Shown here: piece by piece, positions 1,448 to 57,900 of the stretch
How the letters are laid out: every line of letters begins with the position of its first letter
How positions within the stretch are numbered: position 1 is the stretch's first letter
Source of the DNA: a virus
Taxonomy: Duplodnaviria; Caudoviricetes
Virus record (IMG/VR): IMGVR_UViG_3300024283_000011
Coordinates: 5,564 to 69,563 of that record
Direction: 5' to 3' (one strand)
DNA: 64,000 bases
Translations under genes and position numbers: made by a program
Notes under the pieces: model-generated
Told to the model about the DNA's origin: nothing
The model's input: the letters and a program-made list of their open reading frames with translations, nothing else
Databases searched by the model: none

Positions 1448-1484
1448 ACGGTACGCGGGCGGCTGCCTCCCTCAATTATCTAGA
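1448..1484 (-). promoter_or_regulatory. Repeated promoter motif, copy 1: TCTAGA-TAA-TTGAGG-N16-TACCGT, 7 nt before the ATG of the chaperone
   Basis: Read directly from the sequence; matches four other copies. Confidence 0.65.
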
Positions 1485-5984: not shown

Positions 5985-6359
5985 TCAGTTGTCGTAGCCG
6001 AACAGGTTCACGGAGCCGACGACGGCGGTCGCGGTGGCGCCCGAGAACTCCAGCGTCATGGCCGTGTTCACGGTGCCGACGATGTTCAGGCCGGTCAGAT
6101 TGAGCGCCGCCACGCCGTTGACGGGAGTGGCCAGCGCCCACGAACCCAGGATCGTCCCGGCGCCGGTCGCGCCGTCACGTAGGACGACGGCGACAGGCGT
6201 CTGCGCAGTGGCGCCGGCCGCGACCGAGATGCTGATGCCGCTGCAGATGTGGCGCACGCCGGCAGCGGCCGCCTTGCTGATGGTGGGCGTCCCGGCGGTC
6301 GCCTGGTTGGTGACGGCCCACTCCTTCGTTACGGAATCTACGAGATCGCGTCCCATCAC
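5985..6359 (-). CDS. Hypothetical structural protein (Ala/Thr/Gly-rich)
   Basis: 124 aa after the major capsid gene; beta-sandwich-like composition. Confidence 0.6.
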   Translation of the reverse strand: MMGRDLVDSVTKEWAVTNQATAGTPTISKAAAAGVRHICSGISISVAAGATAQTPVAVVLRDGATGAGTILGSWALATPVNGVAALNLTGLNIVGTVNTAMTLEFSGATATAVVGSVNLFGYDN

Positions 6360-10361: not shown

Positions 10362-11837
10362 ATGGCGTTTCCTTGGCCTTGGGGATCTAGATCAAAGGCT
10401 GCCGCGGCTTCTGGCCCTGCGGCGCCCGTTGCGACCTCGGTTTCGGACGCCAAGCCTCGCATCGTCGACGGCCTGTCGAACGTGGTGGCCGGCCTCAACA
10501 CCGACCGCGACAAGCGCTTTTTCTCGAACTACGACGTCCCACTGGCGCAGAGCCGGGTCGACCTGGAGTCGATGTTCCGCGGCAGCTGGATCAGCCGCCG
10601 CATCATCACGACCGTGGCCGACGACATGACGCGCGCCGGCTGGCGGCTGAACTGGGACGGCTACGACGACGACGAGGACGGCGCCCAGGCGATCAAAAAG
10701 GCCGAGGCGGCGTTCGCCATCAAAGAGAAGGTGAACTCGGCGATTCGGTGGGCCCGGCTTTACGGCGGCGCCGTCATCCTGCTGGGCGTCGCCGGCGAGG
10801 AAGACCTCTCGCAGCCGCTGGACGTGGCCAAGCTGGGCAAGGACTGCCTGAAATACCTGCACGTCCTCGACCGCTGGCAGATCATCGGGAGTGCGGAACT
10901 GGAACGCGACATCAAATCTCCCAACTTCCGCATGCCCAAGTTCTATTCGATCGCCGACGCGTCGACCGACACGAACGAGACGAACATCCACTGGTCGCGG
11001 GTGATCCGCTTCAACGGCCAGCAGCTGCCTTACTTCCTGTGGGTCCAGAACGCCCGCTGGGATGACAGCGAGCTGCAGGCGCCGCTGGAGAGCGTGCGGA
11101 ACTACGACAGCGTGACGATGGGCGTCTCCTCGATGATCTTCGAGGCGAAGGTCGACATCCTCTCGATGGCTGGCCTGGCCGATCAGCTGGCCATGGACGG
11201 CGGCAGCGCCAAGGTCACGGCGCGGCTCATCGCCGGCATGACGATGAAGGGCATCAACCGCACGCTCGTCATCGACAAGGACACCGAGACCTATGAACAG
11301 AAGCAGATGCAGTTCTCCAGCCTGGACAAGATCATCCAGAGCTTCGTGATCGATCTCTGCGGCGCCTGCGACATCCCGGCGACGCGGCTCTTTGGGCAGT
11401 CGCCGGCGGGCCTGAGCGCGACGGGCGAGAGCGACATCCGCAACTATTACGATCACGTCAGCGCCCGCCAGGAGACCAACCTGCGACCGCAGCTGATGCG
11501 GCTCTACGAGGTCCTGGTGCGGCACTCGATTGGGTCGATGCCGGAAGACTTCGACATCGCCTTCGAGCCGCTGTGGCAGACGACCGACAAAGAGCGGGCC
11601 GAGATCGACAAGCTGCGCGCCGAGACGGACCAGGTCTACGTCTCCATCGGGGCGCTGACCGAGGGCGCGATCGCGCGGGAGTTGCAGGACCGGGACACCT
11701 ATCGGACGCTGACCGACGACGACGTCAGCATGGCCGAGGAACTGGCGAAGCAGCCGGACCCGGTGCCGGTGGCGCCGGTGGCAAAGGCGCCGGCGAACGG
11801 CGCGCCGAAGCCGCCCGTCGCGGCGACGCCCGCCTAA
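10362..11837 (+). CDS. Portal protein (DUF1073/HI1409 type), opposite strand to its module
   Basis: RRIITTVADDMTRAG, WARLYGGAVILL and DIPATRLFGQSPAGLSATGESDIRNYYD motifs; start set at ATG 10362. Confidence 0.9.
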   Translation: MAFPWPWGSRSKAAAASGPAAPVATSVSDAKPRIVDGLSNVVAGLNTDRDKRFFSNYDVPLAQSRVDLESMFRGSWISRRIITTVADDMTRAGWRLNWDGYDDDEDGAQAIKKAEAAFAIKEKVNSAIRWARLYGGAVILLGVAGEEDLSQPLDVAKLGKDCLKYLHVLDRWQIIGSAELERDIKSPNFRMPKFYSIADASTDTNETNIHWSRVIRFNGQQLPYFLWVQNARWDDSELQAPLESVRNYDSVTMGVSSMIFEAKVDILSMAGLADQLAMDGGSAKVTARLIAGMTMKGINRTLVIDKDTETYEQKQMQFSSLDKIIQSFVIDLCGACDIPATRLFGQSPAGLSATGESDIRNYYDHVSARQETNLRPQLMRLYEVLVRHSIGSMPEDFDIAFEPLWQTTDKERAEIDKLRAETDQVYVSIGALTEGAIARELQDRDTYRTLTDDDVSMAEELAKQPDPVPVAPVAKAPANGAPKPPVAATPA

Positions 11838-13231
11838 ATCACGTCGAACATCGAGCGGCCTTTCTGGCTGTTCCAGGCGTGGGCCAGCGCGTCCACCTGG
11901 TCGTCGTGGCGGTCGTTCACGCCCGTGAACTTGGCGAGCTCGTCGAGGAACGGCCCCAGCCACGCCGCGTCTGTCGCCGGCACCAGGAGGCGGCCGTCGT
12001 TCCACGCCGCCGCCACCGGCTGGGCGCGCGTGAACTTGTCGCCCTTGGGGTCGATCTCGTTGATGCGGAGGTCGCGGTTGATCTCGCGCAGCATCTGCGG
12101 AATGGCCTTGAACGCGCCCACGGCCTCGATGTTGATCGCCGTGTTGCCGTATGCCCGCTGCAGGCCCAGCAGATCCCGCGCGAACACCGGCATCGCCACT
12201 TGTTCCCGGTAGACCTTCAGGACGTGGCCGACGGCCTGCGCCCCGACGCCCTTGACGGCCAGCACCACCGCCGCACTATAATCGGCCGTCGTCTTCTTCG
12301 ACGCCGCCGGGTCGGCTGCCAGGATGATCCGCATGCCCGTGACGTTGAAGGTCAGCGGGTCGTAATAGTGCGGCTCCCCGAACACGGCGCCCCCGCGCGG
12401 CCGCGGCGCCCCCTGGTAGAGGGCGGCGAAGTTGAACTCGCCGATCGTCCGCCTGATCTCGTCCAGCTCGGCGGCGCTGAATCGTTCGGGCCAGAGCGGA
12501 TCGCCCGGCGCGCGGCCGAGTTGGTCGTTCTCCTCGGCGGCAGCCGGCAGGTTGATGACGGTCCAACCCTCGTCCTTGGCGAGGCGCCCTATCAGGTCGT
12601 CCTCGTGCCAGCGCGTGTGGATGACGAAGACGCTGGCACCTTCGAGCCGGGTCATCGCGACGGTCCGGAACCAGTCGTCAACGGCGTCGCGGTAGACCTG
12701 CGAGTAAGCGTCCACCGGGCCCTTGAACGGGTCGTCGACCACCAGGAGGCCGCTGATACCCTGGCCGGTGAGGCCGCCGCCCACGCCGCCGGCGAGGAGG
12801 CCACCGCCATCCGTGGTGCGCCACTCGGCCTTGTTGTTGGTCTCGTCGGACAGCTGGACGCCGGCGCGCGCGGTCAGCGCCCTGGCAAGCACGGACTTCG
12901 AAAGCGCCTGGGGGGCGTTGTAGCTGAAGTAGCCGCAGGTGTCGCCCGAGTTCTTGGCCAGCCACCACGCGAAGGCATGCAGCAGGAGCGTCGTCTTGCC
13001 GTGCCGGGGCGGCATCGACAGCAGCACCTTGCGCCGCTGGATGCGGCAGCGCTCGAGCTCGGCGATCAGCGGCTCGAAGTGCCGGGGCGGCGGGTGATGC
13101 GGGGACAGCCGGCGGATGAAGTCGGCCAGCGATTCGCCGCCGACCAGATCCTCCTGCAGTTCTAGGTATTCATCGCGCTCATCCTCGGTCAGCGCGTCCC
13201 ACTGCTCATCCGTCAGCGTCGCCGGGCTCAT
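11834..13231 (-). CDS. terL: Terminase large subunit
   Basis: Walker A SMPPRHGKT, LLVVDDP, TRWHEDDL, nuclease ADPA and HDDQVDA. Confidence 0.95.
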   Translation of the reverse strand: MSPATLTDEQWDALTEDERDEYLELQEDLVGGESLADFIRRLSPHHPPPRHFEPLIAELERCRIQRRKVLLSMPPRHGKTTLLLHAFAWWLAKNSGDTCGYFSYNAPQALSKSVLARALTARAGVQLSDETNNKAEWRTTDGGGLLAGGVGGGLTGQGISGLLVVDDPFKGPVDAYSQVYRDAVDDWFRTVAMTRLEGASVFVIHTRWHEDDLIGRLAKDEGWTVINLPAAAEENDQLGRAPGDPLWPERFSAAELDEIRRTIGEFNFAALYQGAPRPRGGAVFGEPHYYDPLTFNVTGMRIILAADPAASKKTTADYSAAVVLAVKGVGAQAVGHVLKVYREQVAMPVFARDLLGLQRAYGNTAINIEAVGAFKAIPQMLREINRDLRINEIDPKGDKFTRAQPVAAAWNDGRLLVPATDAAWLGPFLDELAKFTGVNDRHDDQVDALAHAWNSQKGRSMFDVI

Positions 13232-13643: not shown

Positions 13644-13680
13644 ATTCTCGCGGCCTTACCGCCCGCCTCAAATCTCTAGA
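13644..13680 (-). promoter_or_regulatory. Repeated promoter motif, copy 2: TCTAGA-GAT-TTGAGG-N16-GAGAAT, before terS
   Basis: Read directly; begins right after the TGA of the upstream gene. Confidence 0.6.
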
Positions 13681-23304: not shown

Positions 23305-23543
23305 TGGCGCCGCTCCGCCAGCCGGATCGCTTCGAGGGCCAGCTTCTCGGCGCGCTCGATCCGCTGCGCCGCCTCGATCAGCCGGTCGTCGAACGAGAGG
23401 ATCAGATCGCGGCAGGTCAGCAGGATGTCGGCCGCCCTTGCCGGATCGTTCACGATGACCGCGACCAGCGCGGCGCGCGCTTCATTGACGGGCGCCGTCG
23501 GCGCGTCCTCGATGATGGTGGGAGTGGAGGGATCGACGGTCAT
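23301..23543 (-). CDS. Hypothetical coiled-coil protein
   Basis: 80 aa from ATG 23543 (ATGA overlap). Confidence 0.55.
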   Translation of the reverse strand: MTVDPSTPTIIEDAPTAPVNEARAALVAVIVNDPARAADILLTCRDLILSFDDRLIEAAQRIERAEKLALEAIRLAERRQ

Positions 23544-24607
23544 GCGGCCCTCCGTGGGATGTAGTCGGGGACGAGGTGCCCATACCCCTTCGCGATCGAG
23601 GCCTGCGTGGCGCCCGTCCATTTCGCGAGAACGTGAATTGGTTCCCCGGCTTTGATGCACCGGCTGATGAACGAGACGGTGGTGGCGTCGTGCCAAGTCA
23701 TGCCGTCGAGCCGAAGGGTCTTTCGTACGGCGTCCCATCGGTACTGGATCCAGCCTTTGTCGTTGATCGGTGCGCCCTCGGCGTCGACAAACAGGCGATC
23801 CTCTCGGCGCGCACCCTCGGCCAGTCGCACCTCGGCTTGTTCGCGAAGGCCTCTCGCGGTCGCCACCGGCACCGGCGGCTCTGGTAGCCGCGCCCGGCGC
23901 ACGATGGTCCGCCCATAACAAAACCGGGGCCGGATGAAACCAGCGCCGAGAAATTCCGTGTCGGCGATCCGGAGTCCTAGGATCTGGCCTGATTCCAGGC
24001 CGGTATCGTAGCCGACCCGAAACATCAGATCGGCGGGCGCCGGTAGTTGTGCCTCAACCGCCATCGCCATTTCCGTGGTTGTGATGATCGGCCGATCTCG
24101 CCTTGGCTGCGGCGCCTTCAGCGACAGTCTGGCCCTGAGTCCGTCGAGCGGATTGGGCTTGTCGAGCGGCAATCGACCGCTCGTCTTCAGCCAGTTGAAG
24201 AAGCGCTGGAGGTCCGTCAGGCAGTGGTGGAGCAGAGGCACGCTCTTCTTTTCTGCGATCCATTCCTCTGCCCACTTCAGAATTTCCTCGGGCGTGAGGG
24301 CCGAAATGGTCCGCTCTCCCCACGCCGGGAGCAGGTGGTTCCGAACCCTGCCGACGCTGCAATCGGCTGCCACGTTCGTGATAGACATCGACCACCGATC
24401 GAGTGCGGCACCGATCGGCGGCGACGTCGGTTCGTCGATACCAAGTCCGATCCGCTCTTCTTTGGCTTCGAGAACGACCGCGATGCGATACGCGTCGGCC
24501 TTGGTTGCTTGCCGCACGCGACGCGACGCCCACTTACCATTGGCCAACTTGATCCGCGCGTACCAGCGCGGCGCCTTCTTTGGTCCCCGGAAAAAGACGC
24601 TAGCCAC
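23540..24607 (-). CDS. Tyrosine recombinase-like protein with degenerate active site
   Basis: Integrase fold order retained. TGLESGQ replaces TG.R..E, WHDATT replaces H..R and TGA replaces LGH; the Tyr is kept (KGYGHL). Confidence 0.75.
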   Translation of the reverse strand: MASVFFRGPKKAPRWYARIKLANGKWASRRVRQATKADAYRIAVVLEAKEERIGLGIDEPTSPPIGAALDRWSMSITNVAADCSVGRVRNHLLPAWGERTISALTPEEILKWAEEWIAEKKSVPLLHHCLTDLQRFFNWLKTSGRLPLDKPNPLDGLRARLSLKAPQPRRDRPIITTTEMAMAVEAQLPAPADLMFRVGYDTGLESGQILGLRIADTEFLGAGFIRPRFCYGRTIVRRARLPEPPVPVATARGLREQAEVRLAEGARREDRLFVDAEGAPINDKGWIQYRWDAVRKTLRLDGMTWHDATTVSFISRCIKAGEPIHVLAKWTGATQASIAKGYGHLVPDYIPRRAA

Positions 24608-24610
24608 GAA

Positions 24611-25549
24611 TCACCATCCGCTCTCCTCCTCTTCGTCTTCCGCGCGCGTCGGCTCCCCGACGTCCGCCGCCGCCGGATCTTCGTCCTCGCTCTCGTCGAC
24701 CTCGTCCTCGTACGCGGGTTCGTCGAAGTGCTCGCCCTCGTGCAGCGCGCGGATCTTCGCGACGCCCGTCTGCTGAATCTGGCGCACCCGTTCGAGCGTC
24801 ACGTTGATCAGATCGCCGACCTTCTGCAGCGACACCCCGCCGCGCTCCTCGACGTCGGACGCGCACGTCTCCTCCAGGTCCTCCAGCGCCATGCCGGGGA
24901 AGTTGTATTTGATGCTGCCGTTGCGCGGGTTGACGTCGAGATAGAGATGCCGGCGACAGCCGACCCACGGGCAGGGCCTCGGCCCGTTGCGGCAGTCGTC
25001 CCTGGTCTTCGGCCGCAGCACCAGCAGCCGCTTGATCGGCGCCAGCTCGCGCGCCGCTTCCTTCTCGGCCTTGCGAAGCGGCGGCATGCCGATCGCGTGC
25101 GGTTTGCGGCGCGGCGCCGTCGTGCGCGGGATGCCCTGCAGCCAGCACTGACCACGTTGCGGCCACGGCCCGCGTAGCAGCTTGATCAGCGGGTTGCGCG
25201 CCTTGGTCCCGCGCTTCGGGCCGGTCTGCTCGCGCGGCGGCACGTCCTCGTCGGCGGCGGGGATCGGCAGTTGGAACGGCAGCGGGCGAAACGGCCCCAT
25301 CAGGCGGGCGCCCCGGCGGGCCCACTCGCGGCGGCGCTCCCATGCGGCGGCCCACGCTTCGAACTCGGGCGTGCCGGTCGGCGGCGCCGTCAGCGGCAGC
25401 TCCAGTTCGGGGGGCGGCTGGGCGAGCCAGGCGGCGCGGTCGCGCTCCCAGCGCAGCCGGCGCGCGGTCTCCAGTTCCTCCCAGCGCGCGCGGGCGGTGC
25501 GCGCGGCGGGGATGGGCGGCAGCAGGCCGATGGGCGACACGGCGCTCAC
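24611..25549 (-). CDS. Cys-rich module plus sigma70 region-4-like HTH transcription factor
   Basis: DCRNGPRPCPWVGCRRHLYLDV...ETCASDVEERGGVSLQKVGDLINVTLERVRQIQ; acidic tail. Confidence 0.75.
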   Translation of the reverse strand: MSAVSPIGLLPPIPAARTARARWEELETARRLRWERDRAAWLAQPPPELELPLTAPPTGTPEFEAWAAAWERRREWARRGARLMGPFRPLPFQLPIPAADEDVPPREQTGPKRGTKARNPLIKLLRGPWPQRGQCWLQGIPRTTAPRRKPHAIGMPPLRKAEKEAARELAPIKRLLVLRPKTRDDCRNGPRPCPWVGCRRHLYLDVNPRNGSIKYNFPGMALEDLEETCASDVEERGGVSLQKVGDLINVTLERVRQIQQTGVAKIRALHEGEHFDEPAYEDEVDESEDEDPAAADVGEPTRAEDEEEESGW

Positions 25550-38829: not shown

Positions 38830-39168
38830 TTATGGCTGGTCGCGCCATGCGCGGACGGGAACCCCGAAGCCGGCGAGGCGGCGCCGCCATGCGGCCGGCG
38901 CGGGGCGGAAGTGCGGGCCCGCCTTCCAAGCCTTCTTCATCTGGTCGGGGGTGGTGCCGCAGAGGTCGGCGGCCACGGCCACGGTCAGCGAGCGGAGGAT
39001 GGCGGCGTGCGCCGGGTCAGGCCGCGCGCCCAGCTTGGCCCGCGCGATAGCCAGCGCCCGCCGGTCGATGCCGGCCCGGGCCTCCAGCCGTTCGGCCTCC
39101 GCCAGCGCCTTCTCGGCGCGCGCCCGGGCCCGCAGGGCGGCTCGGACGAGGGCAGGCGATACCGGCAC
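38830..39168 (-). CDS. Hypothetical Ala/Arg-rich protein
   Basis: 112 aa from GTG; TACGGT -10 6 nt upstream. Confidence 0.5.
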   Translation of the reverse strand: MPVSPALVRAALRARARAEKALAEAERLEARAGIDRRALAIARAKLGARPDPAHAAILRSLTVAVAADLCGTTPDQMKKAWKAGPHFRPAPAAWRRRLAGFGVPVRAWRDQP

Positions 39169-39208: not shown

Positions 39209-40507
39209 CTACCCGGTGATTTCGGCGCCGAGGGGCGAGTGAAACCGCTCGGGCGCGTCCTCCATGCCGATCCGCTCGGCGATGGCGGTCGCCCTCCTGG
39301 TCGCCGCGAACTCGATCTGCCTGACCCGCTCCCGCGTGACCTGCGTGATGTCGCCGACGGCTTCGAGCGTGTGCGGGCCGTCGTCGGCGATGTCCAGGGA
39401 GCAGCTGTGCGGGATCTGGTCGGGCTCGAGATCGGGGTGGTTCAGGCGGATGCCGCCGCTCTCCGTGACGTCGAGATAGAGGTGATGTCTGCAGCTGATC
39501 CAGGGACAAGGCCGCGGGCCATCGATGCAGTCGCCGCGGATGCGCGGGCGCGGCGGCAGCGGGCCGATGTCGTCGCCATCATCATTGGCCGCCAGGACGC
39601 GCAGGTGACGCCGCTGGACGCCCTGCGCGACCACGCCGAGGGTCCGATAGGCGCGGTAGGACCGGCGGCGCGGCGCCGCGGGGAAAGATTCAGGCAATTC
39701 CTGTGTCGCCTTTACATCACCGTCCGGCGGCACCTCCCCTGGCACCTCGCCCGTTAGGTCGCCCTCGCCACCGTGAAACCGAAGCCGCGCGATCGCCTCC
39801 TGCTCGATCTGGCAGGCGCGGCTCTCGGAGACGCCCAGTGCGTCGCCCACCTGCCGCAGGTTCAGCTGGCGCGGCCCGTAGCGCAGCGTCAGCACCAGCG
39901 CCATGCGCTCGGGCAGTCCTTGGACGGCGGCGGTGAGGTTCTCGCGCAGCTCGGCGCGGGCGGCCTCCTCGAAGGGGTCGGGCGCGGCGACGTCGGGCAC
40001 GCGGGCGGCGGCCACCGGCGCGTCGTCGATGCCCATCACCACGGCGCCGCTGGTCTTCAGCTGCTGGGCGTGCAGCTCGTCGAGGCCGATGCCCAGCTTG
40101 GCGGCCACCTGGTCGGCGGCGGCATGGCCGGTCTCGCCTTCGACGTCGGCGGCGGCCTTGCGCATCTTCTTCTGCAGTTCCCGCCCGCCGCGCGAGAGCG
40201 TGTCCTTCTCCCGCAGGTCGTCCAGGATGGCGCCGCGGATGCGCGGCTCGGCGAACGCGGCGAAGCTGCCGCCCTTGCGCAAGTCGAACCGCGAGCCGGC
40301 TTCGGTGAGGCCGAGGTGGCCGGCCGAGATCAGATCGTCGAACGGCACGCCGGCGGGCAGGCGCTTGGCCATACGGCGAGCGACACGTTCCACCAGGAAC
40401 AGCCAGTCTTCCACGTCGACCGCGAGTGCCGGCGCGGCGGGGCGCGCCTTGCAGGTCTCGCGACGGTGGCCGGGCTGACGACAGAGACCGCAGCGTCGAC
40501 CGGCCAT
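39209..40507 (-). CDS. FliA/WhiG-like sigma factor fused to a zinc knuckle and a second Cys/region-4 module
   Basis: Region 2 DDLISAGHLGL.EA..RFD..KG.SF..FA..RIRGAILDDLR; region 4 LPER...LRQVGDALGVSESRACQI; then DCIDGPRPCPWISCRHHLYLDV...TLEAVGDITQVTRERVRQIE. Confidence 0.85.
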   Translation of the reverse strand: MAGRRCGLCRQPGHRRETCKARPAAPALAVDVEDWLFLVERVARRMAKRLPAGVPFDDLISAGHLGLTEAGSRFDLRKGGSFAAFAEPRIRGAILDDLREKDTLSRGGRELQKKMRKAAADVEGETGHAAADQVAAKLGIGLDELHAQQLKTSGAVVMGIDDAPVAAARVPDVAAPDPFEEAARAELRENLTAAVQGLPERMALVLTLRYGPRQLNLRQVGDALGVSESRACQIEQEAIARLRFHGGEGDLTGEVPGEVPPDGDVKATQELPESFPAAPRRRSYRAYRTLGVVAQGVQRRHLRVLAANDDGDDIGPLPPRPRIRGDCIDGPRPCPWISCRHHLYLDVTESGGIRLNHPDLEPDQIPHSCSLDIADDGPHTLEAVGDITQVTRERVRQIEFAATRRATAIAERIGMEDAPERFHSPLGAEITG

Positions 40508-40513
40508 GCTCCG

Positions 40514-40550
40514 ACCGTACGCGCGCGGGCGGGCGGCTCAAGGATCTAGA
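40514..40550 (-). promoter_or_regulatory. Repeated promoter motif, copy 3: TCTAGA-TCC-TTGAGC-N16-TACGGT, 6 nt before the sigma ATG
   Basis: Read directly; follows the TGA of the DHH gene. Confidence 0.65.
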
Positions 40551-51879: not shown

Positions 51880-52416
51880 ATGGCGCGCGAGTCCGACCGG
51901 TCCGTCCTGCATCCGGTGATCCGCAACCTGCTGCCGCAGCTCGACCAGCAGCTTTTCGCCGCCGGCATCCCGCTGCAGCTGTACGAGGCGGGGCGCACGC
52001 CGTTCCGGCAGGCCGAGCTGTACGCGGTTGGGCGCGGGACGGGGACGCCGGGGAAGCACGTCACGCGGGCGAAGGCGTGGGGCAGCTTCCACCAGTTCCT
52101 CTTGGCGATCGACTATGTGTTCAAGGTCGACGGCAACTGGACGTGGGACGAGCCCGAGGCCGGCATGTGGAAGCAGTACCAGGCCATCGGCGCATCGCTG
52201 AAGCTACGCGCGCTGCCGTTCGAGACGCCGCACCTGGAGTTCCCGTGGTCGCTGGCGGACCTGCAGACGGGCAAGTACCCCAACGGCGGCGACGACGCCT
52301 GGCGTGGGTGGCTGGACACGCAGATCGAACTCTGGGGCAGCCGCGCGCGGGATGTCGGGGGGATCACTCACCCGGCGGCGCCGCCGCTGGCGATCGAGCG
52401 GCCGGCGGTGGCGTGA
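51880..52416 (+). CDS. Endolysin, M15 family L-Ala-D-Glu peptidase
   Basis: EAGRT..RQAELYA.GR...VT.A....SFH...AID...ETPHLE. Confidence 0.85.
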   Translation: MARESDRSVLHPVIRNLLPQLDQQLFAAGIPLQLYEAGRTPFRQAELYAVGRGTGTPGKHVTRAKAWGSFHQFLLAIDYVFKVDGNWTWDEPEAGMWKQYQAIGASLKLRALPFETPHLEFPWSLADLQTGKYPNGGDDAWRGWLDTQIELWGSRARDVGGITHPAAPPLAIERPAVA

Positions 52417-52723: not shown

Positions 52724-53215
52724 TCAGATCGCCGCCCGCGGCAGCGCGCCCGCCGCGACCCGCCCCGCGAGCATCTCCCGCCGCGCGACGTGCGTGGCCA
52801 AACCGATCGCGTCAGCCACATCCTCCGGCACCGTGAGCCCGTACGTCGCCTTGACCCAGATCGCCGCCGCCCGCTTGCGCTCCTCGCTCTTGGACTTGCG
52901 CGAGATCAGGCCGGTCAGGATCGCCTTTTGCCAGGTGTCGGCCATGACCAGCTCGCTGGGGATCCCGCGCGTGGCGAACGCCTGTTCCCAGCGGCCCTGG
53001 ATGCGCGAGAGCACCTTCACGGTGTTCACGTTCTCGCCGAGATAGCTGTCCTCGATCACCGCCAGCGCCGGCCGGGCGATGCTGTTGACCAGCGCGGCCA
53101 GGGCGTCGATACGCATCGGCTCGCGGGCGTTCACCGTGCCGAACTTCAGGACGCGGTCGCCGTCGAGAAGGCACCAGCCCGAAACTGAAGCGCTGTCGAT
53201 GCCGAGAATGATCAC
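52724..53215 (-). CDS. RuvC-like Holliday junction resolvase
   Basis: ILGID, VIED and D.ADAIGLA catalytic motifs; start GTG 53215. Confidence 0.85.
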   Translation of the reverse strand: MIILGIDSASVSGWCLLDGDRVLKFGTVNAREPMRIDALAALVNSIARPALAVIEDSYLGENVNTVKVLSRIQGRWEQAFATRGIPSELVMADTWQKAILTGLISRKSKSEERKRAAAIWVKATYGLTVPEDVADAIGLATHVARREMLAGRVAAGALPRAAI

Positions 53216-53385
53216 TTCGTCGGCAGCGCCGGCGGTGCGCCGTTCCCCTTCGGCATCGCGAGCCCCAGCGCGCCGCCGATGATCATGCCGGCGATGGGGG
53301 TCAGTTCGTTCATGTGGTTCGTGAGAGCGCCAACGACGGCGACCGACGCGCCGACGACCAGAGCCAGAAAATGCCACTTGTCCAT
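53212..53385 (-). CDS. Two-TM holin candidate
   Basis: My translation: MDKWHFLALVVGASVAVVGALTNHMNELTPIAGMIIGGALGLAMPKGNG... Confidence 0.5.
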   Translation of the reverse strand: MDKWHFLALVVGASVAVVGALTNHMNELTPIAGMIIGGALGLAMPKGNGAPPALPTK

Positions 53386-53678: not shown

Positions 53679-53990
53679 TCAAGGCAGTTTCGATGATTGG
53701 ACGATGTAGCTGATCTTCAGCAGGAATCCGACGAGCCCGATCGCGATGGCCGTGGCTACCCCCACGTAAATCTTCGACCACATCGCGCGGCTCTCGTCGT
53801 GCTTCTTCAGCCGGCCGTTCATGTCGGTCATGAGTTGGTTGATCGTGTCGAGTTTCTCGACCAGCCGCTCGGCGCTCGCATCCTGCTTTTCGAGATGGCG
53901 CTCGACCTGCTCCATCCGCCAGGCGAGCTGCGCCGGCGATGGCGGCATCCCGCCGCCCGTCGGGATCCGCCCGCGCGGGTCGGTGCTCAC
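53679..53990 (-). CDS. Coiled-coil plus C-terminal TM protein (XhlA-like lysis accessory)
   Basis: RMEQVE..LEK...KLD...then IYVGVATAIAIGLVGFLL. Confidence 0.55.
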   Translation of the reverse strand: MSTDPRGRIPTGGGMPPSPAQLAWRMEQVERHLEKQDASAERLVEKLDTINQLMTDMNGRLKKHDESRAMWSKIYVGVATAIAIGLVGFLLKISYIVQSSKLP

Positions 53991-54451
53991 GGCCGCATCT
54001 CCGGCGCCTGGTCGACCCGCTGCGCCGCCATCATCACGGCCGCCACGGCCGGCACCACGCGAAACCCAAGGTTGTCGACCTTCTTCGTCGGGTCCCAGTG
54101 GACCTTGATGTCGACGCCCGCCAGGTCAGCCGACCATTGCGACCGCAGCAGATCAAACGCCAGGTCGCGAACATGGTCCGCGCTGGTCAGCGGCTTGTCG
54201 ATCTCGGCGGTCATGATGGCCAGCTGCATCTGCTCTGTGAAACGTGGGTCGCGCAGCGCCTTCTGCACGGCCTCGCAGCGGGCGTTCACGCCGGCGCGGC
54301 TCAGCTCGCGGCGGATGGCGTGGATGCGGGCGAGCCGGTCAGCCTCGGCGCGCGCCTGGGCAGCGTCGGGCCGGTGCGCGGCGCGGGCGGCGTGGCGCTC
54401 CTTGCGCACTGCTCTGCGACGGTCTTTCTTGTCGCGCTTCTTGCGGCTCAC
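53987..54451 (-). CDS. Basic hypothetical protein
   Basis: 154 aa, GTG start, own promoter copy. Confidence 0.55.
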   Translation of the reverse strand: MSRKKRDKKDRRRAVRKERHAARAAHRPDAAQARAEADRLARIHAIRRELSRAGVNARCEAVQKALRDPRFTEQMQLAIMTAEIDKPLTSADHVRDLAFDLLRSQWSADLAGVDIKVHWDPTKKVDNLGFRVVPAVAAVMMAAQRVDQAPEMRP

Positions 54452-54460
54452 GTCGGCTTG

Positions 54461-54498
54461 ACTGTGCTGGTGGTTCGGGTCGCACTCCAGGATCTAGA
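54461..54498 (-). promoter_or_regulatory. Repeated promoter motif, copy 4: TCTAGA-TCC-TGGAGT-N17-CACAGT
   Basis: The TAG of TCTAGA is the stop codon of the upstream gene. Confidence 0.5.
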
Positions 54499-54928
54499 CG
54501 GAGCCAGATCGCGCAGGCGTTGCGTCAGCGGGCGGATCGACTGCAGCCTTTGCGGACGGGGCGACGTATCGGCCGGCCCTCAGGTCCTCGATGCGCTTCT
54601 CCAGCGTGTGGATGTGCTTGCCGAGGCTGGGGTGGATCTTCGTGTCGGTGATCTTCATCAGGTAATCGAGCACCTGATTGGTGGTCGGGTACTCGACGAG
54701 ATCCGATGACGCGAAGTCCGCGATCGGGGCGTCGCCCTTTTCTTTCAGGGCGGCGAGGAAAGCGTCTCTCGCGGCGCGGATCTCGAAGTCCTTGTGCAGG
54801 TCGTCGCAGAGGTCGCGGTCGTGCCGGTTCTCGGGCGCGAAACTATCGAGGAAAAGGCCCAGCGCGGTGCGCTCCTGTTCGCTGACTTCGACCCGGCGTT
54901 CCTGGCTCGCGACTTTGTGATCACCCAT
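54494..54928 (-). CDS. Hypothetical protein downstream of the tail fibre (possible chaperone)
   Basis: 144 aa. Confidence 0.55.
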   Translation of the reverse strand: MGDHKVASQERRVEVSEQERTALGLFLDSFAPENRHDRDLCDDLHKDFEIRAARDAFLAALKEKGDAPIADFASSDLVEYPTTNQVLDYLMKITDTKIHPSLGKHIHTLEKRIEDLRAGRYVAPSAKAAVDPPADATPARSGSV

Positions 54929-54934
54929 GCCGGC

Positions 54935-54972
54935 ACGATGGGCGCGGATCTAGATCGCCTCAAAAATCTAGA
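54935..54972 (-). promoter_or_regulatory. Repeated promoter motif, copy 5: TCTAGA-TTT-TTGAGG-N17-CATCGT, with a second GATCTAGATC in the spacer
   Basis: Read directly; follows the fibre TGA; ATG 6 nt downstream. Confidence 0.65.
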
Positions 54973-57900
54973 TCAGCCCGAGAAGGCGCTCTGCGAGATG
55001 CCGATGATCGGCACGTAATAGAAGACGTCGAGCGAGATGCCCTGCGGGAACACGCGCATCGCGTACTGGAACGAGCTGGGCATGGCCACGCTGGGCGAAA
55101 AGACGCTCGGCGGGATGCTCAGGATGTGGTTGGCGCCGACGAGCGTGCCGCCCTGGATCTGGACGAGGCTGCCGAACTTCGAGAACCCGCTCTGCACCCA
55201 GAACGCCCAGGGGTTCGTGATGGTCACGCCGCTGGCCGCCGGTGGGCCTTCGATCGCCACCGTGGCCGCCTGGCTGATCGTCAGCGAGCCGCTCAGTGTG
55301 GGCCGCTTGAACGTCGCGTAATTGAAGCCCAGCGAGTTGATGTTGTTCGTACCGCTGACGCTGACGGTGGCGTTGTCGAGCAGGAAGTAGTCGAGCGGGT
55401 TCGTGCTGCTGGCGTCGACGGATACGTTGCCGCCGATCCTGACCTGGTTGCCGGCAGTCGGCGTCGCGCCGCCCACGCCGAGGGTACCGTCGAGCAGCGA
55501 GGTTCCGCCGGTCACATGGAAGGCGGTGTTGCCGGTTGCCACGCCGCTGACGCCCAGGCGCGATCCGATGTCGGTCGGGTCGACGCCCGCCGACGTATTC
55601 GCGACCAGGAAGTTGCCGTTCGCGAAAATCTTCGCGCGCACGATGCCCGTCCCGAAGTCGCCGCCGGTAAGGAAGGCCCGGTAACCCCCGTTGCTGAAGT
55701 CGTAGAAGTTGCCGCCGCTCTCCCCGCGCAGACCCGCGCGCGTGGTCGATGTCGACGTGCGGAAGTGCATCACCGCTTGCCCGGTGGCGGACGACGACGA
55801 CAGGATCAGCGTGGGCGTCGAGAAGCTGGTGTTGCCCGACAGGAACGTCATCGTGTCGGCGCTGGAGTCGTCGTAGAACGAGTTGCCCAGCTTGATGACG
55901 CCGTTGCCGGTGGTCGTCGACTTGAGGGTGAGGTTCTCGCCGTTGGCCGTGCCGCCGAACGCCGTCTGCCCGCCCGACTTGCCGGTGGAGATCATGGCCG
56001 TGATCGTGTTGATCGACCGCGACAGGCCCGTCGAGAAGGTCAGCGGCAGCTCATAATCGGTGCCTCCGCTGGCGACGAACACCGTGCCCGAGACGGCCTT
56101 GAGCATCCCGTTCAGCGACTGGATGACGACCGTCGACCGCATGTTGACCGTCGAGTCGAACCGCGACAGGCCGCCCGCCACCCACAGGGCCATCGCATTC
56201 GCGATCGTGAGGCTGCCCGCGTTCGCCGGCTGATTCTCGATCATCACCGTCGCCGCGTTCGTGATCTGCATCGACGACGCATTGGTCAGCGTCGGCGCGC
56301 GGAAGACGGCGAAGTTGAAGCCCGCCGCCGTGGTCACGTTCACGGCGCTGGTCAGCGTGGCGGTGACGGTGTCCCAGAGGTGCGCGTTCCACGCGAGCGA
56401 CGTCGACGCCGCGGTGGTCGCCGGCGTCGCCGCCCAGCGGGTGATCCCGAGCTGCTGGGCCGTGCCGCCCGCGCCGACGAGCGCGCCCAGGTCCGACGGG
56501 TCGACGCCCACGGACGTGCCGTTGACCAGGAAGTTGCCGTTGTTGAAGAACTTCGCCGCGACGCGGCCGGTGCTGAAGTCCCCCCCGACCAGGAACATCC
56601 GATAGCCGCCCGTGCTGAAGTCGACGAGGTTGCCGCCGGCGTCGGCGCGGATACCCGCGCGAAGCGTGCTGGTCGACGTGCGCAGGTGAAACACAGCCTG
56701 GCCCGAGACGTTGTTGGACGCGAGGACCAGCGTCGGCGTGCTGAACGTGGTGTTGGCCGAGAGCAGGGAGAGCGTGTCCGCCGTCGAGTCGTCGTAACTG
56801 GACAGGCCGAACAGGATCTTGCCCTTCGTCGCGTTCAGCGTCGACGCGAGCGTCAGGTTCGCCGATGCCGTCGCCGAGTTGCCGCCCGCCGCCGTCTGGC
56901 TGCCGGCGACGCCGGTGCTTAGGTTGGCGGTGATCGTGTTCGAGACGCGCGTCAGGCCGGTGCTGAAATTCAGCGCTGGCTCGTAGTCGGTGCCGGCGGT
57001 CGCCCGGCCGAGCAGGCCCGCCGACGACGCGTTGATCAGCGCCGAGCCGGTGCCCGCGAGCCCGCTCACCGTGGCATTGCCCGTGGTGTCGACGCGGAAG
57101 CGGTCGCCCGTCGTGCCGGTGACCACCAGGCCGGCGACGGTGGCGTGGGTCGAGCTGACGTAGAACAGGCCGTCGCTGCTGTTGCGGCCGAGGTCATACT
57201 CGGACCCGGTGGCCTGTCCCACGCGGACCTGGACGTTGCCCGCGTCGGTGACGTGGAGGCGCTGCTGTGGCGACGACTGGTTGATGCCGAGGCGGTTGGT
57301 CGCCTCCTTGTAGACCGTCGTGCCGATCGTCAGCGAGCCCTTGGTCGCGTTCGTGGTCGTCGAGAGGACGATCCCTTCACCGCTGCCGGTGCCGCCCACC
57401 CAGGTCGTGTTGCCGCCCCCCAGAGCCTTGCCCGTGATGTAATCGCCGGTGATGGTGTTGCCCGAGCGCGAGAGGCCCGACGTGAACGTCAGGGCCGGCT
57501 CGTAGTCGACGCCCGCGCTGGCGATGCTGACGACGCCGGTCGTGGTCGTGCTCTTGAGCAAGCCGGTCGACAGGTTGCCGAGGAACTGCGCGCCCGAGAG
57601 CGTCGAGTCCGCGGTCCCCTGGACGATGAACTTTTGCGGCAGCGTGCCGACCTTGATCGTCGTGGTGGTCGGGAAGCTGATCGTCGAGTCGGCCGCCGAC
57701 AGCGGCGCCTGATAGTCGGTGCCCGCGGTGGCGCGCTGGAGCGTGCCGGCCGTCGACGCCTTGACCATCGCCGCCGTACCGCCGCCCAGGCCCGCGATCG
57801 TGACGGCGCCGCTGCTGTCGACGCGCAGGCGCTCGCCGCCGCCACCGCCCACCACGAAGCCGGCGACGCTGGGATGCGTGCTGGTCAGGTAGCAGAGACC

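Follow-up and report, generated by a model that had tools for sequence, protein, structure and literature searches.

The phage DNA analyzed here encodes a protein, P0001, in which a group-3 sigma core is joined to a putative zinc knuckle and to a four-Cys (Cys4) module with a second helix-turn-helix (HTH), and its gene lies behind one of five copies of a promoter-like motif, TCTAGA-N3-TTGAG. The window, that is, the whole stretch of 64,000 nucleotides, spans positions 5564-69563 of IMGVR_UViG_3300024283_000011, a linear virus record of 69,563 bp in IMG/VR (CheckV completeness 88%), has a G+C content of about 68%, and carries nearly all of its genes on the minus strand. The phage is temperate, and its host is probably a myxobacterium. 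We consider it very likely that P0001 is a real and conserved phage transcription protein with a complete FliA/WhiG-like sigma core and the architecture given below. The explanation that we favour for its role, a sigma fusion with a -35-type module acting at late promoters, has as a whole about an even chance of being correct, and that the fusion protein acts at the five predicted promoters of this phage is suggested more tentatively, its likelihood being somewhat short of even. In the usual picture, a sigma factor recognizes its promoters through a single region 2 and a single region 4, and a conserved natural fusion with a knuckle and a putative second -35 reader of the primary-sigma type offers a ready-made test of promoter choice by extra contacts. 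As far as we could find, no group-3 sigma combining a CCHC knuckle with a second HTH of the -35 type has been described.

The fusion gene and its parts are as follows, with residues numbered as in P0001:

39209-40507, minus strand: fusion gene (P0001, 432 amino acids (aa), stop included), encoding knuckle, sigma core, linker and Cys4-HTH module
40451-40492, minus strand: putative N-terminal CCHC zinc knuckle, residues 6-19, CX2CX4HX4C in sequence
39779-40414, minus strand: group-3 sigma core with FliA/WhiG-like regions 2-4, residues 32-243 (Pfam, NCBIfam, AlphaFold2 (AF2), Foldseek)
39551-39778, minus strand: low-complexity linker, residues 244-319, with a conserved acidic DLT-x-LV motif (AF2, homologue alignment)
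39275-39550, minus strand: Cys4 module, residues 320-411, an RPCPW-type four-Cys element followed by a sigma-4.2-like HTH
39293-39379, minus strand: second region-4-type HTH, residues 377-405 (Pfam region 4, E 1e-5 with the C-terminal part scanned alone)
39212-39274, minus strand: C-terminal tail with a conserved ER-x-x-SPL motif

The sigma core is the best-defined part of the protein. Pfam Sigma70_r2 matches residues 35-102 (41.5 against a cut-off of 24) and Sigma70_r4 matches residues 195-243 (69.5 against 24.1), positions 19-233 of the 241 positions of the NCBIfam FliA model align to residues 32-243, and the cut-off of the sigma-70 superfamily model TIGR02937 is passed with 82.7 bits against 42.9. 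Regions 2, 3 and 4 are contiguous, with neither a region 1.1 nor a non-conserved insert, as in FliA and WhiG, and the FliA-type signatures of regions 2.3/2.4 and 4.2 are complete. In the AF2 model, the core has a predicted local distance difference test score (pLDDT) above 90, with helices unbroken over residues 32-246, and the top Foldseek matches are the P. aeruginosa sigma-28 open complex, sigma-28/FlgM and WhiG/RsiG. P0001 therefore resembles the sigma-28/FliA-WhiG proteins (9wsm from P. aeruginosa, 1rp3 for Aquifex sigma-28/FlgM, and 6pfv for S. venezuelae WhiG) in its ordered regions 2, 3 and 4, in its PRIRGA-LD-LR and SESR-CQI motifs, and in its best hidden Markov model and fold matches. 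It differs from any described FliA or WhiG in carrying the knuckle and the Cys4/HTH module, and also in that there is no promoter of the family in the window and that its cellular relatives lie outside flagellar clusters. Its scores with the FliA/WhiG models TIGR02479 and NF005413 are close to but below the curated cut-offs (172.2 against 189.6 and 178.1 against 201), and we therefore call the core FliA/WhiG-like and do not file it as a member of the family.

The knuckle at residues 6-19, read from the sequence, has the exact CX2CX4HX4C spacing. Its match to Pfam zf-CCHC_2 (PF13696) is weak (E 0.027, 14.7 bits against a cut-off of 27); PF00098 is precomputed on the relative P0005, residues C6, C9, G13, H14 and C19 are invariant among the fused homologues, and the pLDDT of the knuckle is 77-86. 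The public gene call (P0002, 387 aa) begins at Met46 and so lacks both the conserved knuckle and the first part of region 2. The G+C content at third codon positions of the fusion gene is 0.89. The linker is disordered in the AF2 model (about residues 248-320, pLDDT <50), and this, together with a predicted template modelling score of only 0.37 for the whole protein, indicates that the parts of P0001 behave as beads on a string. This anatomy agrees with the one that the original prediction had read from the letters of the DNA (knuckle, regions 2-4, linker, Cys4 and second HTH). Two short motifs, DLT-x-LV (residues ~250-256) and ER-x-x-SPL (~420-426), recur outside the folded domains in P0003, P0004, P0073, L051 and L008, the latter motif being present also in some small stand-alone module proteins, and they are candidate docking peptides.

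The C-terminal module is no second copy of region 4 of the sigma core, which it matches only at E 4.8. The best PDB sequence matches of its HTH are to region 4 of RpoD/SigA, with about 50% identity over about 35 residues, and like region 4.2 of the primary sigmas (T. aquaticus SigA, 1ku7; T. maritima RpoD, 1tty) it keeps a TRER-RQIE recognition helix. Its DNA-reading residues match those in region 4.2 of the primary sigmas and hardly vary throughout its family, from which we infer that the module is a putative reader making a -35-type DNA contact, TTGAC/TTGAG-like. Unlike region 4 of the primary sigmas, it has a four-Cys beta-hairpin element in place of the region 4.1 helices, and for this reason sigma-style binding to the beta-flap would not be expected.

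This module, in which the four Cys may bind a metal (Zn or Fe-S), belongs to a very large unnamed protein family of phages and Myxococcota (more than 7,000 clusters at 50% identity), to which the fusion draws attention. In an exhaustive profile-free search, with clusters defined at that identity, the family had 7,211 cluster representatives at E <= 1e-3 and 5,061 at E <= 1e-10. Most members are 110-250 aa long, have the module at the C-terminus, and stand mostly alone. An alignment of 50 family sequences shows no variation at C327, C334, C339 and C369 or in the RPCP motif, and conservation of at least 90% at each of the recognition-helix residues T, R, E, R, R, Q and E (TRERxRQxE); residues 320-405 of P0001 hold all of these marks, namely the four Cys, RPCP(W/F/Y) and the TRER-RQ-E helix. 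AF2 of the isolated module (pLDDT 82) gives a beta-hairpin Cys element followed by the HTH. Foldseek and VIA-align gave no convincing structural match for the Cys-rich part (Z <5 throughout, with only the helical C-terminal part covered), NCBIfam, PHROGs and the local Pfam-A hold no model of it, and our literature searches found nothing on the module family or on sigma-knuckle fusions. Sources name members of the family only "DNA-binding protein" or "sigma factor-like helix-turn-helix DNA-binding protein", the latter from Polyangiaceae. The P0001 module is a member of the family so named, which is found in Polyangiaceae and phages, and is unlike most members in being fused to a sigma. The genome matches of the module in GTDB are mostly Myxococcota, and in the protein atlas the module clusters are mostly viral, with Myxococcota in addition. 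The deposited-phage collection gave zero matches to the module and four weak matches to the sigma only. On the chromosomes of Sorangium and Polyangium, a module protein of 250-290 aa is encoded at a conserved non-prophage site (L120, L114, L116 and others; 6001-6297). The chromosomal Sorangium gene adjoins transporter and hydrolase genes, a context that gave no functional clue, and in So ce56 an ECF-like (extracytoplasmic function) sigma gene lies about 3.5 kb from it.

The order of parts found in P0001 recurs in three other metagenomic proteins, P0003, P0004 and P0360 (45-70% identity). P0003 (610 aa) is 67-70% identical to P0001 and has six knuckles and the ER-x-x-SPL tail, P0004 (555 aa) is about 45% identical and has an extra knuckle inside the linker and the same tail, and P0360 (916 aa) shows the order knuckle(s), sigma, linker and module; Sigma70_r3 is precomputed on P0004 and P0360. 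Because these three proteins derive from other samples, an assembly artefact, the concern attached to the original prediction, is excluded. Only four clusters were found in which the module is fused to a sigma core. IMG/VR scans with P0001 and P0360 as queries found no relative with the fusion, and a metagenome scan returned cellular sigma relatives only and no contigs of the other fusions.

It might be proposed that such a fusion does not initiate transcription at all and is a decoy or shut-off factor, which would tie up the host core polymerase or occupy host -35 elements through its sigma-4.2 mimic. Stand-alone module proteins without a polymerase-binding part are abundant in phages, and a -35 mimic could act by occupancy. 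However, all sigma regions, including the melting and -10 motifs of regions 2.3/2.4, are conserved among the four fusions at 45-70% identity, and a mere decoy would not need them. The conserved chromosomal module protein of Sorangium and Polyangium also argues for a normal regulatory role. We regard a decoy as highly improbable.

A second group of relatives, comprising P0005 and genes of the viral loci L051 and L008, consists of a knuckle array, a DLT-x-LV linker and the module, with no sigma core. L051 is part of the record G206, a syntenic sister phage whose structural genes share about 65% DNA identity with those of the phage studied here and whose integrase matches its integrase with E 7e-132. 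The knuckle-module gene of G206 stands at the exact position of the sigma fusion, and its module is 48% identical to that of P0001 with the same recognition helix. The neighboring gene downstream (38830-39168, minus strand, directly downstream of the fusion and upstream of the integrase in the window) is likewise kept in G206, with 59% identity; it has no Pfam match, and its product is possibly an excision or DNA-binding accessory protein. A tblastn search found no sigma in the 68.8 kb of G206 (record 73% complete). The simplest history, judged from these sequences, would be that a phage regulator made of knuckles and the Cys4/HTH module existed first and then received a group-3 sigma core of cellular origin.

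The closest cellular sigmas are about 51% identical to the core and are found in soil metagenomes, on contigs as long as 949 kb, where their genes adjoin an NtrC-type activator gene and a GGDEF gene, not flagellar genes. In Polyangiaceae genomes and a 201-genome sample of Myxococcota, the sigma relatives reach 34-43% identity at most. The genes of the cellular sigmas with about 51% identity (L167-L246, for example L168, L171, L174 and L177; L211:8213-9628) follow a sigma-54-type promoter, TGGCAC-N5-TGCT, and repeated CCATTCGGTTGACGG-like boxes also lie upstream of them, with the NtrC-type activator gene immediately upstream. The lineage thus looks controlled by sigma-54 and an enhancer-binding protein rather than flagellar. 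The upstream regions of the cellular relatives contained no autoregulatory promoter and gave no hint of the specificity of the lineage.

The motif TCTAGA-N3-TTGAG, with at most one mismatch, occurs five times in the window against 0.17 expected, and none of 100 shuffles reached five; the promoter motif reported in the original prediction is thus real, and the upstream region of the fusion gene is indeed one of its copies. All five copies are on the minus (gene) strand, each in a short gap starting at the stop codon of the preceding gene or overlapping it, and the rest of the record beyond the window holds no further copy. The copies and the promoter-like region of the fusion gene are as follows:

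1471-1484, minus strand: motif copy before a tail-module gene, 1117-1440 (weak DUF6848 and minor-tail PHROG matches)
13667-13680, minus strand: motif copy upstream of a DUF5681 gene that stands in the terS position; next comes the large terminase gene, 11834-13231
40537-40550, minus strand: motif copy 3, 29 nt upstream of the ATG of the fusion gene
40514-40550, minus strand: promoter-like region of the fusion gene, with TCTAGA at 40545-40550, TTGAGC at 40536-40541 and a 16-nt spacer
40514-40519, minus strand: candidate -10 box of the fusion gene, TACGGT, 6 nt from the ATG at 40507
54485-54498, minus strand: motif copy with one mismatch (TGGAG), before 53987-54451, with small membrane proteins downstream
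54959-54972, minus strand: motif copy between the tail-fibre gene and 54494-54928
54947-54956: second GATCTAGATC, in the spacer of the copy at 54959-54972

A -10-type hexamer, nAnnnT, follows T(T/G)GAGN after 16-17 nt in all five copies (TACCGT, GAGAAT, TACGGT, CACAGT and CATCGT), for which the chance is 0.049 per site and 2.8e-7 for all five together. In each case the start codon lies 6-9 nt beyond the -10 box, so that the transcripts would be leaderless or nearly so. A regular-expression search that combined the -35 box, the -10 box and a real open reading frame (ORF) start returned exactly these five sites on the minus strand. We therefore describe them as predicted promoters of the sigma-70 type, nearly leaderless. 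A Shine-Dalgarno sequence at normal spacing is missing from four of the five genes behind the motif and present in 23 of 62 other ORFs, a difference that hints at leaderless starts but is not significant, the start calls being uncertain. The start codons concerned are at 1440, 13634, 40507, 54451 and 54928, and transcription is predicted to begin at each of them or 1-3 nt before it. Because the promoters are so compact, the hypothesis can be tested directly in vitro.

The genes behind the copies are those of the tail module, of packaging and of the fusion operon, which contains the sigma fusion, small genes and the integrase, and those behind the two copies at 54 kb lead to small membrane proteins that resemble holin or spanin. 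With TTGAG taken as the -35 box, TCTAGA is centred at -41.5. It is the core of a palindrome, GATCTAGATC, which has seven matches with at most one mismatch against 1.06 expected. TCTAGA itself occurs ten times in the window against 2.4 expected, in all ten cases at gene junctions, and four of the ten contain the TAG stop codon of the upstream gene (1116, 51844, 40545 and 54493). Five of the ten have no TTGAG (1116, 10386, 50537, 51844 and 54949). The large terminase gene has as its downstream neighbor a gene that is the portal by position, and the GATCTAGATC at 10384-10393 stands after this neighbor. In IMG/VR, a scan for GATCTAGAT-N2-TTGAG gave scattered single matches, and no module or sigma was among the 80 loci listed.

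In the mechanism that we favour, the sigma core would bind the host core RNA polymerase, and the flexibly tethered module would add a second sequence-specific contact of the -35 type, to TTGAC/TTGAG-like DNA. The most likely targets would be the five TCTAGA-N3-TTGAG promoters, which belong to the packaging, tail, lysis-like and own operons. At these promoters the fusion would probably serve as a late regulator, and a sigma-less orthologue would do so with the host holoenzyme. The TCTAGA palindrome at -41.5 would more likely be bound by a separate dimeric factor than by a single module. In favour of this mechanism, the fusion gene lies behind one motif copy and the other copies head late operons.

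Several observations weigh against it. G206, which is sigma-less, keeps the promoter skeleton before its orthologous gene (TGGAGT, 16 nt, TAGGGT, 8 nt, ATG), and its tail-fibre junction retains TTGAGG followed by GATCTAGATCC; the skeleton being kept there, the promoters would need no sigma core. In geometry and hexamers the sites are in keeping with promoters of the host primary sigma that have weak -10 boxes, and the motif is missing at 79 other viral loci with the module. The usual target of FliA-family sigmas is TAAA-N15-GCCGATAA, a site that the window lacks; it has five matches to CCGAT(A/T)(A/T), none of them with a TAAA -35 box. The original prediction was right in stating that the -10 boxes are not FliA-like. 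Finally, region 4 of the holoenzyme itself is already at the -35 element, which makes a second reader of the -35 type hard to place.

In another explanation, the host primary sigma would read the five promoters as ordinary ones with weak -10 boxes, and a dimeric phage protein other than the fusion would turn them on or off by binding GATCTAGATC at -41.5 (the position of a class II activator) and once within a spacer; the fusion gene would merely be one of those controlled in this way, and the fusion would have its own targets elsewhere. This is consistent with the sigma-70-type geometry (T(T/G)GAGN, 16-17 nt, nAnnnT), with the palindromic core and its excess of matches, with the five further gene junctions that have TCTAGA and no TTGAG, with the conservation of TCTAGA sites in sigma-less G206 at 56662 and 53552 (the latter the counterpart of the 51844 site), and with the fact that such -10 boxes would be an unexpected target for a FliA-type core. 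However, no candidate for a palindrome-binding protein was found, and a strict sigma-70 scan does not call the five sites, whose -10 boxes match at 3 of 6 positions only. Four of the five boxes share a G at position 5 and three have a flanking G and C in common, so that the -10 boxes look like a distinct class rather than degenerate TATAAT. In addition, an alternative sigma gene behind its own promoter class is the usual arrangement for autoregulation. We consider this explanation possible, at a likelihood well under even; if the host polymerase simply reads the promoters, the finding shrinks to an unusual but ordinary phage sigma gene.

The original prediction had proposed that the tandem region-4 domains could read the two halves of a bipartite element and form a late switch with positive feedback; in this model, the protein's own region 4 would take TTGAG and the tethered module TCTAGA. 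The distance between TCTAGA and TTGAG is indeed fixed at 3 nt in all five copies, the linker of about 75 residues could span it, the gene stands behind copy 3, and, the -10 boxes being non-FliA, an altered specificity is conceivable. This part of the prediction nevertheless did not hold up well. The recognition helix of the module is nearly invariant in the family and of the primary-sigma type, which reads TTGACA, whereas TCTAGA is particular to this pair of phages. The palindromic core suggests a dimer rather than one tethered HTH, as a palindrome is not the expected target of a single monomeric HTH. The orthologous promoter of G206 has TCTGAA in place of TCTAGA in spite of a module that is 48% identical with the same recognition helix. 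The sigma-70 geometry and the skeleton kept in G206 without a sigma likewise speak against it, and we think it quite improbable that the two domains divide the element in this manner.

In a broader scheme, the proteins that combine knuckles with the Cys4/sigma-4.2 module would form an undescribed class of phage and myxobacterial factors that give or replace the -35 contact ("region 4 in trans"), with the module brought inside the holoenzyme in the four fusions. A sigma with two -35-type readers and a single-strand-binding knuckle would fire private, leaderless late promoters, each with a bipartite upstream element, and feed back on its own gene. We offer this scheme as a speculation that is unlikely to hold in full.

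ECF sigmas with C-terminal extensions are known, for example the Cys-rich CorE of Myxococcus xanthus; as members of group 4 they have no region 3, and they use their extensions for sensing or regulation. P0001 is like CorE in being a sigma with an extra Cys-rich C-terminal part and unlike the ECF sigmas in that it has a region 3 (full-length FliA alignment) and that its group-3 core is extended by a further, DNA-binding HTH. Class II activators such as CRP, FNR and lambda cI are centred at -41.5, and the palindromic site of this phage takes the same position. In RinA-type late activation in temperate phages, the promoter is immediately upstream of terS and the late operon (PMC3152322). P0001 would similarly be a phage regulator linked to a promoter directly before the small-terminase gene and late operon; it differs in that it contains a whole sigma core, whereas RinA is small and activates transcription by the host holoenzyme. 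In T4, MotA and AsiA bring about sigma appropriation (PMC6755090), and in concept only, P0001 is comparable in that a DNA reader supplied by the phage would take over or supplement the -35 contact. It differs from MotA/AsiA and from CRP, FNR and cI in having no sequence or fold relation to them and in that the extra reader is covalently part of the sigma.

The phage also encodes a stand-alone paralogue of the module, which the original prediction had correctly listed:

24611-25549, minus strand: stand-alone paralogue, Cys4/HTH module only, 44% identical over 24737-25015

Its recognition helix reads TLERVRQIQ, with Leu for the first Arg and Gln for the last Glu, and to judge by these replacements its -35-type specificity may be altered or lost. 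The gene is translationally abutted to an integrase-like gene (23540-24607). Integrase adjacency as a general rule for module genes was dropped, as it was seen, when two integrases served as queries, at just 5 of the 79 viral loci. In two further relatives, P0361 (839 aa) and P0166 (1108 aa), the module and knuckle are joined to repeated HTH or sigma-r4-type domains and not to a full sigma core, from which it follows that the scaffold accepts various inserts.

Three further genes are also of note. The gene at 51880-52416 (plus strand) resembles by eye an M15-type cell-wall peptidase, and 52724-53377 (minus strand) shows by eye an ILGID-type RuvC-like N-terminal motif downstream of the listed start; neither has a positive family-library match. 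The gene at 53212-53385 (minus strand) encodes a 57-aa holin-like protein with two hydrophobic segments, which is 92.6% identical to its G206 counterpart, while its neighbors are 30-50% identical.

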